29,055 bases of DNA from a virus (Duplodnaviria; Heunggongvirae; Uroviricota; Caudoviricetes), in IMG/VR virus record IMGVR_UViG_2565956610_000009, positions 1 to 29,055 of that record. The stretch is one strand, 5' to 3'. Positions 10,489-10,819 of this stretch are shown here, one piece after another. A program made the position numbers and the translations under genes. The notes beneath the pieces are model-generated. The model had not been told where the DNA came from, ran no database searches, and saw nothing but the letters and a program-made list of their open reading frames with translations. Within the stretch, counting starts at the first letter, position 1, and each line of letters begins with the position of its first letter.

Positions 10489-10668
10489 TTACGCGTCAGG
10501 GGGTGTAATAGTATATCCAGCTATTTCTGCCAACTCGAGAAACGCCATCAGGCTGGCAATCCGCTCATCATCGGTCAGAACACGCACACCAACGATGTGT
10601 CCGTCCTTACGCTTGATAACAGCCCGGCATGTTTCCGGTAGTTCGCCTATAGATTCTTGAATATTCAT
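10489..10668 (-). CDS. Small protein (59 aa) transcribed from a LexA-box-containing promoter
   Basis: ATG at 10668 preceded by GGGGGGAAG SD; LexA box 23 bp upstream overlapping a TATAAA -10 element. ORF-track start 10689 is an upstream extension. Confidence 0.5.
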   Translation of the reverse strand: MNIQESIGELPETCRAVIKRKDGHIVGVRVLTDDERIASLMAFLELAEIAGYTITPPDA

Positions 10669-10690
10669 GTCTTCCCCCCAATGCCACAAC

Positions 10691-10706
10691 CTGTATATTT
10701 ATACAG
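10691..10706. promoter_or_regulatory. LexA (SOS) box
   Basis: CTGTATATTTATACAG fits CTGT-N8-ACAG with an AT-rich core close to the E. coli consensus; flanked by ATGCCA / TGGCAT inverted repeat; minus-strand promoter elements ATGACA-N17-TATAAA overlap it. Confidence 0.7.
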
Positions 10707-10819
10707 TATTTTATGGCATTTGTCATAACGCCAAATACAATGAGGGAATAATGAACAATTATATTCACGTCGTGAATTTTATTAAACGGTTTTATAGGGG
10801 ATTAAACCGTTTATGGTCA

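Follow-up and report, generated by a model that had tools for sequence, protein, structure and literature searches.

The DNA analyzed here, a stretch of 29,055 nucleotides from a virus of the class Caudoviricetes (IMG/VR record IMGVR_UViG_2565956610_000009, positions 1 to 29,055), is referred to below at its full length as the window. On its minus strand lies a gene for a protein of 59 amino acids (aa) at 10489..10668, preceded by a near-consensus box for the SOS regulator LexA at 10689..10708. The gene stands outside the immunity region, 12 kb from the gene for a short prophage repressor of the GtgR/GfoR/DicA type (22858..23271, plus strand), and its product is a candidate antirepressor of the GfoA/FsoA/Rem family, grouped in PHROG 340. 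We estimate the probability that this locus is a Gifsy-type SOS induction module at roughly 0.8. The argument is built on computed properties of the locus: the quality of the site, its conservation, family memberships, synteny and the co-occurrence of the small gene with the repressor.

The LexA Box and the Putative Promoter of the Small Gene

The core of the box, CTGTATATTTATACAG (10691-10706), is the sole CTGT-N8-ACAG in the window and lies exactly where the first-pass annotation had placed a near-consensus LexA site. The bare 16-mer pattern is weak as evidence, with at least one match in 27 of 100 shuffles. Together with its flanks, the 20-mer ACCTGTATATTTATACAGTA agrees with the 20-bp Escherichia coli LexA consensus TACTGTATATATATACAGTA at 17 of 20 positions, a level attained in none of the 100 shuffles, and it is the only site of such quality in the window. 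Sites were scored with an approximate position weight matrix (PWM), symmetrized from 27 chromosomal E. coli SOS boxes. By this matrix the box scores 25.5 bits (heterology index ~2.8), above all but two of the 27 training sites, versus 10.6 bits for the runner-up in the window and 18.2 bits for the best site in 200 first-order Markov random windows. On the same scale the functional box of the Gifsy-2 dinI gene scores 23.7 bits and the box before dinI in Salmonella phage SEN34 scores 25.1 bits. The Gifsy-2 record (NC_010393, L004 in our numbering of loci) also holds a second strong LexA-like box, AACTGTTTGTATATACAGTA, at 45544-45563 (26.2 bits), ~300 bp from the right end of the record and away from the dinI-gftA operon.

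A putative σ70 promoter on the minus strand (10698..10726) combines a −35 element, ATGACA (10726..10721), and a 17-nucleotide (nt) spacer with a −10 element, TATAAA (10703..10698), that falls inside the LexA box. Read on the minus strand, the region runs TTATGACA-AATGCCATAAAATACTG-TATAAA-TATACAGG...GGGGGGAAGAC-ATG. The edge of the box lies 23 bp from the ATG at 10668, with no open reading frame (ORF) in the 22 nt between box and gene, and a Shine-Dalgarno-like GGGGGGAAG is found at 10679..10671. The initial reading of the locus had proposed both the overlap of the box with a minus-strand promoter and the 23-bp distance; the distance stands, and the putative −10 element accounts for the overlap. 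We infer this promoter from the sequence and from relatives: those whose small proteins are 56-76% identical to that of the window, L005, L007 and L013 among them, retain ATGACA without change, 17 nt away from a −10 element that reads TATAAA or TATATA.

A consensus scan called a second promoter-like site, TTAATA-16-TATAAT, on the minus strand at 10758..10785, partly conserved in relatives. Transcripts from this site would need to cross the LexA box; if it fires, LexA would be a roadblock ~45-60 nt downstream of the start. Its spacer encloses a perfect 15-bp palindrome, ATTCACGTCGTGAAT (10763-10777), which is unique in the window and kept as ATTCAC-N3-GTGAAT in close relatives, not in L013. The palindrome was considered as a possible repressor operator; it bears no relation to the operator motif of the immunity region described below and is only partly conserved. 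A stable hairpin, AAACGGUUU-N11-AAACCGUUU (10770-10815, minus strand; fold z-score −4.5), follows the upstream 225-aa gene; it is probably no conserved terminator, because relatives carry both 9-mers as a direct, not an inverted, repeat.

The 59-aa Protein and Its Family

The 59-aa ORF is a genuine gene on which purifying selection acts. When the window is compared with two diverged alleles, the rate of nonsynonymous substitution (dN) is 0.12 and that of synonymous substitution (dS) 0.63-0.71, giving a dN/dS of ~0.18. Divergence from L005 and L007 is mosaic, with codons 1-31 synonymously saturated and codons 32-58 nearly identical. Since the repressor protein paired with these alleles is identical (WP_000853106.1) while codons 32-58 are conserved, the C-terminal half would be the better candidate for a contact surface.

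Whether so short an ORF is conserved at all, a question raised by the first-pass annotation, is also answered by the breadth of the family. An ordinary homologue search returned seven close relatives; the wider family emerged when 1.84 billion representative proteins were scanned exhaustively with HMMER, which gave 38 family clusters at E ≤0.001, nearly all of 55-99 aa, with the pattern LP-x-x-GR-hhh-x3-NG-x5-R-x-h-x2-(D/E)E-H-h-A-(S/T)-L-x2-F-x-E-h-A-x2-AGY-x-h-x-PP. An AlphaFold2 model from 20 family sequences (mean predicted local distance difference test score 90) consists of a short N-terminal helix, a β-hairpin (residues 16-21 and 24-30) and a helix (40-49). No similar solved structure was found by a sequence search of the PDB, which gave no match, or by a Foldseek search of the model against the PDB, where the best E was 1.5.

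These data bear on the possibility that the palindrome is a chance AT-rich LexA-like sequence standing before a nonfunctional ORF. The frequency of the bare 16-mer pattern in shuffled DNA and the lack of a Pfam or NCBIfam match for the ORF would fit such a view. It is contradicted by the full 20-mer, which shuffling never reached, by the retention of the box across divergent orthologues (see below), by the dN/dS value and by the match of the protein to PHROG 340; conservation effectively refutes it, and we give it practically no credence.

The 59-aa protein matches phrog_340 at E 1.6e-20, and so do a GfoA-like protein (7.6e-21), FsoA (1.1e-26) and Rem (4.4e-21); PHROG 340 itself is annotated as being of “unknown function”. 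BLASTP aligns the protein with the GfoA-like protein at 33% identity over 51 aa (E 6e-10) and with FsoA at 41% identity over 39 aa (E 3e-8), and its C-terminus, AGYTITPPDA, parallels LGYRVTPPSD of GfoA. GfoA, GfhA and GftA are small LexA-controlled antirepressors that bind short non-cleavable repressors and thereby induce Gifsy prophages, and FsoA of Fels-1 likewise inactivates the Gifsy-2 repressor (PMC3121763). Rem, from the Qin prophage of E. coli K-12, was shown in 2023 to derepress DicA 165-fold (PMC10448788). The 59-aa protein thus shares a PHROG with the proven antirepressors GfoA, FsoA and Rem, which bears out its initial nomination as an antirepressor candidate.

Primer sequences from PMC3121763 (Table S1) fixed the identities of the gfoA and fsoA genes. 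MNSQQMM... and ...EAGIRFEEISNVG, encoded by primers le154 and le162, are the two ends of Fels-1 STM0898.2n, which is therefore FsoA. Primer le163 encodes the C-terminus of GfoA, ...RRLGYRVTPPSDI, and a BLAST search with it found near-identical genes in SEN34 and in coliphage mEp237, located between dinI and an irsA/NinB-like gene; the SEN34 protein is the GfoA-like sequence used in all comparisons. Pfam now holds a “Rem” family (PF27490), which appears in the precomputed annotations of several family clusters, unmarked for P0016, as a weak match for P0012 and as a faint one for P0009 and P0013. The copy of Pfam that we scanned, seemingly one without PF27490, gave no match for the 59-aa, GfoA-like or FsoA proteins even at E 10, and Pfam and NCBIfam scans of these three and of GftA likewise gave nothing meaningful at that threshold. 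No DinI or Tum family was found in the 59-aa protein by Pfam, PHROG or NCBIfam scans.

The Repressor and the Immunity Region

The repressor gene encodes an HTH (helix-turn-helix) protein of 137 aa, or of 130 aa from the RefSeq start at 22879. Pfam finds HTH_3 only and no S24 domain, so that the protein does not classify with autocleavable repressors of the λ CI/LexA type, as the first-pass annotation had supposed from its length. It aligns end to end with Gifsy-2 GtgR (33% identity, E 5e-23) and with DicA (32% identity, E 1e-17), its C-terminal half included, and its best NCBIfam model is “transcriptional repressor DicA” (2.6e-20). By analogy with these relatives, it is presumed to be the target of the 59-aa protein.

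Two overlapping operator-like palindromes of the type ATTACAAA-N5-TTTGTAAT lie between the repressor and cro-like genes (22785..22824), and a third such site is found downstream of the repressor gene (23396..23416), on the presumed leftward promoter (PL) side. The three sites, starting at 22785, 22804 and 23396, are the only ones in the window, where 0.22 would be expected, and all fall in the immunity region. The cro-like gene (22529..22759, minus strand; YdaS-family HTH by Pfam and RefSeq) is divergent from the repressor gene and is followed by a YdaT-family gene (21994-22470; Pfam, RefSeq). Control of the small gene by the phage repressor was considered and rejected: since the operator motif is absent near that gene, LexA is the sole regulator recognizable there.

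Conservation of the LexA Box among Relatives

Loci encoding family members were sampled from large protein collections and scored with the same PWM. In all eight clusters whose small gene precedes DUF1367 and/or Q (the window, P0004, P0006, P0008, P0009, P0012, P0013 and P0016; ~40-76% identity to the window protein), a box of 21.6-28 bits ends 17-170 bp upstream of the start codon, and dinI does not intervene. Several of these clusters come from unrelated metagenome contigs, and the box is by far the top site in each short locus. The six members sampled from other contexts, namely FsoA (Fels-1 left operon), a homologue in the left operon of Stx phages, Rem (Qin), P0010, P0014 and P0019, have no LexA box. 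Close relatives of the window tell the same story at finer scale: CTGT...ACAG and the −35 ATGACA are kept in all seven, save for one box with a 2-bp deletion. Of all the computed evidence, this conservation footprint is the best reason to regard the box as functional.

The variant box (L008, GCA_053634315.1, 2965-2984) has lost 2 bp of its TA run, which leaves CTGT-N6-ACAG and lowers the score from ~25 to 13 bits with the −35, the 17-nt spacer and the −10 intact; the change reflects a naturally occurring operator-constitutive allele or else a misassembly of the TA repeat. P0014 and P0019 (loci L020, L028 and L029), which lack the box, stand directly upstream of DUF4222 and DUF927 (primase-like) genes, a context that suggests satellite-like or P4-like elements carrying such an antirepressor.

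Two further relatives, L022 and L023, have exactly the same repressor protein as the window (WP_000853106.1) and, with it, both the LexA box and a small gene whose product is 75-76% identical to that of the window. Neither has an ORF6N gene or an M78 peptidase gene (both present in the window and described below), and L023 carries a wholly different, HK97-type morphogenesis module. Of the antirepressor-type genes, then, the small gene alone accompanies this repressor.

Relation to Known SOS Induction Modules

In Gifsy-2, the order of features is LexA box, dinI, gftA (STM1020.1n), the irsA homologue (STM1020), ..., ninG and Q. In the window, the box and the 59-aa gene are followed on the minus strand by a DUF1367 gene (9815..10411; an irsA homologue of PHROG 319, NinB/Orf-like; Pfam DUF1367, 6e-78), the product of which is 56% identical to STM1020, by a gene for the putative nuclease YbcO/DUF1364 (9525..9818; Pfam, RefSeq) and by the antiterminator gene Q (8854..9525; Pfam, RefSeq). 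With DUF1367, YbcO and Q downstream, the small gene occupies the same position as the Gifsy antirepressor genes. A homologous small protein, a LexA box at the promoter, a position in the nin region and a short HTH-only repressor are thus all present. The feature not found is dinI, which in Gifsy-2, SEN34 and mEp237 lies between the box and the antirepressor gene and places the box ~365 bp upstream of the latter. As dinI is dispensable for Gifsy induction, its absence would be a variation in architecture that leaves the mechanism unaffected.

Individual systems resemble the window to different degrees. GfoA and GfhA of Gifsy-1 and Gifsy-3 share with the 59-aa protein PHROG 340 and a C-terminal GY-x-(I/V)-TPP-x-D, and their repressors are likewise HTH proteins of ~135 aa without a cleavage domain. 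They differ in that the Gifsy box lies before dinI rather than 23 bp from the antirepressor start, in a UUG rather than an ATG start codon, in a length of ~80 rather than 59 aa and in an identity of only ~33%; the phage background of the window, with a λ-like head and P2-like baseplate and tail genes, is also unlike Gifsy. Fels-1 FsoA is the closest proven relative in pairwise comparison, and the GtgR that it inactivates is 33% identical to the window repressor, but fsoA belongs to the early left operon, which the CI-type repressor of Fels-1 controls; it lacks a LexA box, and Fels-1 induction does not require it. Rem is an E. coli member of PHROG 340, its gene lies upstream of a Q homologue, and its target DicA is related to the window repressor as noted above; unlike the window gene, rem has no LexA box upstream, and the promoter dicBp is not induced by mitomycin C (PMC10448788). 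GftA and GtgR of Gifsy-2 offer the same operon position and mechanism, and GtgR shows the strongest repressor homology of all, but GftA belongs to another PHROG (4847). Finally, Tum of coliphage 186 and AntC of N15 match the proposed scheme in that both antirepressors are kept off by LexA and inactivate a non-cleavable repressor. No sequence relationship to either was detected; Tum, at 146 aa, has a DinI-like half, and the repressors fall into different families. The first-pass annotation had likened the locus to both Gifsy-type and 186-type phages; the Gifsy likeness rests on homology and synteny, while that to 186 Tum is functional only.

The position of the small gene at the head of this cluster raises an alternative, in which the LexA promoter serves mainly DUF1367, YbcO and Q, providing SOS-driven recombination or late-gene activation, and the 59-aa protein is carried along as a minor or unrelated product. 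The three genes do follow the small gene on the same strand, irsA is part of the LexA operon in Gifsy phages, and only a weak hairpin is found in the 77 nt that separate the small gene from DUF1367. This element, an 8-bp stem followed by AUUUUCU (10448..10472, minus strand), has perfect Watson-Crick pairing in L005 and G-U pairs in the window; it was rejected as a terminator (fold z-score −0.86, not significant) and is possibly a weak attenuator. On the other hand, the family of the small protein holds three proven antirepressors, at L027 the box and small gene precede Q without DUF1367, and deletion of irsA or dinI in Gifsy phages left induction unchanged. We regard it as quite improbable that the downstream genes are the main purpose of the promoter, and their expression would in any case be compatible with a Gifsy-type module rather than exclusive of it.

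A Model for Prophage Induction

By analogy with the characterized homologues, we infer that LexA binds the box, that the promoter overlapping it drives the small gene, that this gene is SOS-inducible and that its product binds the repressor. These considerations lead to a model in which, in the lysogen, host LexA bound at 10689-10708 would cover the −10 element and keep the 59-aa gene off. Upon DNA damage, activated RecA would promote self-cleavage of LexA, allowing the 59-aa protein to be made. This protein would then bind the short non-cleavable repressor and remove it from the operators at 22785-22824 and 23396-23416, and release of the operators would turn on the operon of the cro-like, YdaT and replication genes along with the left operon. 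The same transcript that carries the small gene may run on into DUF1367, YbcO and Q.

Several points weigh against this model. Direct BLASTP of the 59-aa protein against GftA and against Rem gave no alignment, so these links are through profiles only, and the link between PHROG 340 and the PHROG of GftA is weak (E 0.02-0.2). Membership in the family does not by itself imply SOS control, as FsoA is under the Fels-1 repressor and K-12 rem, lacking a LexA box, is not mitomycin-inducible. The proposed −10 element, TATAAA, ends in A and lacks the conserved T at position 6, which is why the consensus scan did not call the box-overlapping promoter. In addition, the box does not extend over the second promoter-like site, 50 bp upstream, which makes the geometry of repression uncertain. 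Antirepressors of this family can act on the repressors of other prophages (PMC3121763), which leaves the resident repressor as a presumptive cognate target. Lastly, the ORF6N antirepressor-type gene and the ImmA/CapP-like peptidase gene, which are taken up in the next section, could contribute to induction.

The locus is very probably an unannotated member of the Gifsy-type system of LexA and small antirepressor known since 2011, with an E. coli relative, Rem, characterized in 2023. Such a member would not surprise a specialist, because repressors of the GfoR/GtgR type and homologues of GfoA and FsoA have already been noted as common in E. coli (PMC3121763). What is gained is, first, annotation: a function can be given to PHROG 340 and to proteins that RefSeq labels hypothetical. 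Secondly, the model predicts that SOS-triggering antibiotics, fluoroquinolones for example, would induce the prophage by a route that is reversible and non-proteolytic, and the protein may cross-induce other prophages with DicA/GtgR-type repressors. Thirdly, modules without dinI, with the LexA box right at the antirepressor gene, are widespread.

The ORF6N Antirepressor and the M78 Metallopeptidase

A separate ORF6N antirepressor gene, already recognized at 16887-17675 in the first reading, occupies 16887..17723 on the minus strand, with 17675 as the RefSeq start; Pfam (ORF6N, 1e-21), RefSeq and PHROG (phrog_4792, 1.5e-165) agree on its identity. Residues 213-254 of its product match phrog_340 (E 4.6e-12) and thus form a second copy of the PHROG 340 module in the window. 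In BLASTP, 38 aa of this C-terminus align with the 59-aa protein at 37% identity (E 5e-7). Small family members, for their part, match the C-terminal regions of PHROGs 4792 and 2379, both labelled “anti-repressor”. PWM and operator-motif scans of the window found no LexA box or operator near the ORF6N gene. The window also encodes an ImmA/IrrE-type M78 metallopeptidase (12337-12825, plus strand), for which the best PADLOC match is capP (2.4e-25). CapP is a protease associated with cyclic oligonucleotide-based antiphage signaling systems (CBASS).

The presence of these two genes gives some substance to the idea that the small LexA-controlled antirepressor acts mainly in trans on other prophages, and that the phage itself is induced through ORF6N or through cleavage of its repressor by the ImmA/CapP-like enzyme. 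GfoA, GfhA and FsoA do act on non-cognate repressors (PMC3121763), and the ORF6N protein carries the same C-terminal module. However, L022 and L023, whose repressor is identical, carry the box and the small gene and have neither ORF6N nor M78. The ORF6N gene is without a nearby LexA box or operator, and the M78 gene is distant from the repressor, on the opposite strand and among cargo genes. Primary action in trans is therefore an unlikely account of the small gene, and the Gifsy-type module with the resident repressor as target is preferred.

The occurrence of the PHROG 340 module in both antirepressor-type proteins permits a tentative extension of the induction model, which we think more apt to be wrong than right. 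The module, ~45 residues long and comprising the β-hairpin and helix and ending in A-G-Y/F, might be a portable repressor-binding domain used twice in a two-stage switch. The free-standing, LexA-gated 59-aa protein would serve as a reversible, SOS-dependent trigger. The ORF6N fusion, encoded in the rightward early operon and made only after derepression, would then act as a self-sustaining latch that titrates the repressor after LexA recovers. If this holds, many “ORF6N/KilA-N antirepressors” would owe their activity to a small C-terminal module.

Genomic Setting and Cargo Genes

The window is an E. coli prophage. Its segment 10400-10900 is at least 95% identical in 440 of 5,426 complete E. 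coli genomes, and 445 of the 5,426 carry it at any identity, a share of ~8% that includes O25b:H4-ST131 strains. The record of Escherichia phage vB_EcoM-705R4 is 100% identical to the segment; the literature found on this phage consists of mentions in genome surveys, the abstracts of which describe sequence analyses. In RefSeq, the 59-aa coding sequence is WP_001025459.1, labelled hypothetical. The RefSeq annotation of an O25b:H4-ST131 copy lists on the minus strand head and baseplate genes, terminase, lysis genes, Q, DUF1364, DUF1367 and hypothetical proteins of 59 and 213 aa. Beyond the 213-aa gene, a cargo block on both strands leads to the ORF6N gene, replication genes, the YdaT-like gene and the cro-like gene, after which come the divergent gene for the 130-aa HTH protein and the left operon.

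Within the cargo, the M78 gene is directly followed by a gene for a 201-aa protein of unknown function (12835-13440, plus strand), and a further gene listed with this pair lies at 11705-11938 (plus strand). At the matching site upstream of the small gene, the pair is absent from L007-L010; L005 and L006 have it, and the annotation of L022 and L023 includes no M78 gene at all. Other cargo genes in the interval from the nin region to ORF6N encode a 232-aa protein (13903-14601, minus strand) with a weak PADLOC match to RTasTM of defense-associated reverse transcriptase (DRT) systems (1.8e-5), and a protein of the LprI family of lysozyme inhibitors (15789-16712, plus strand).

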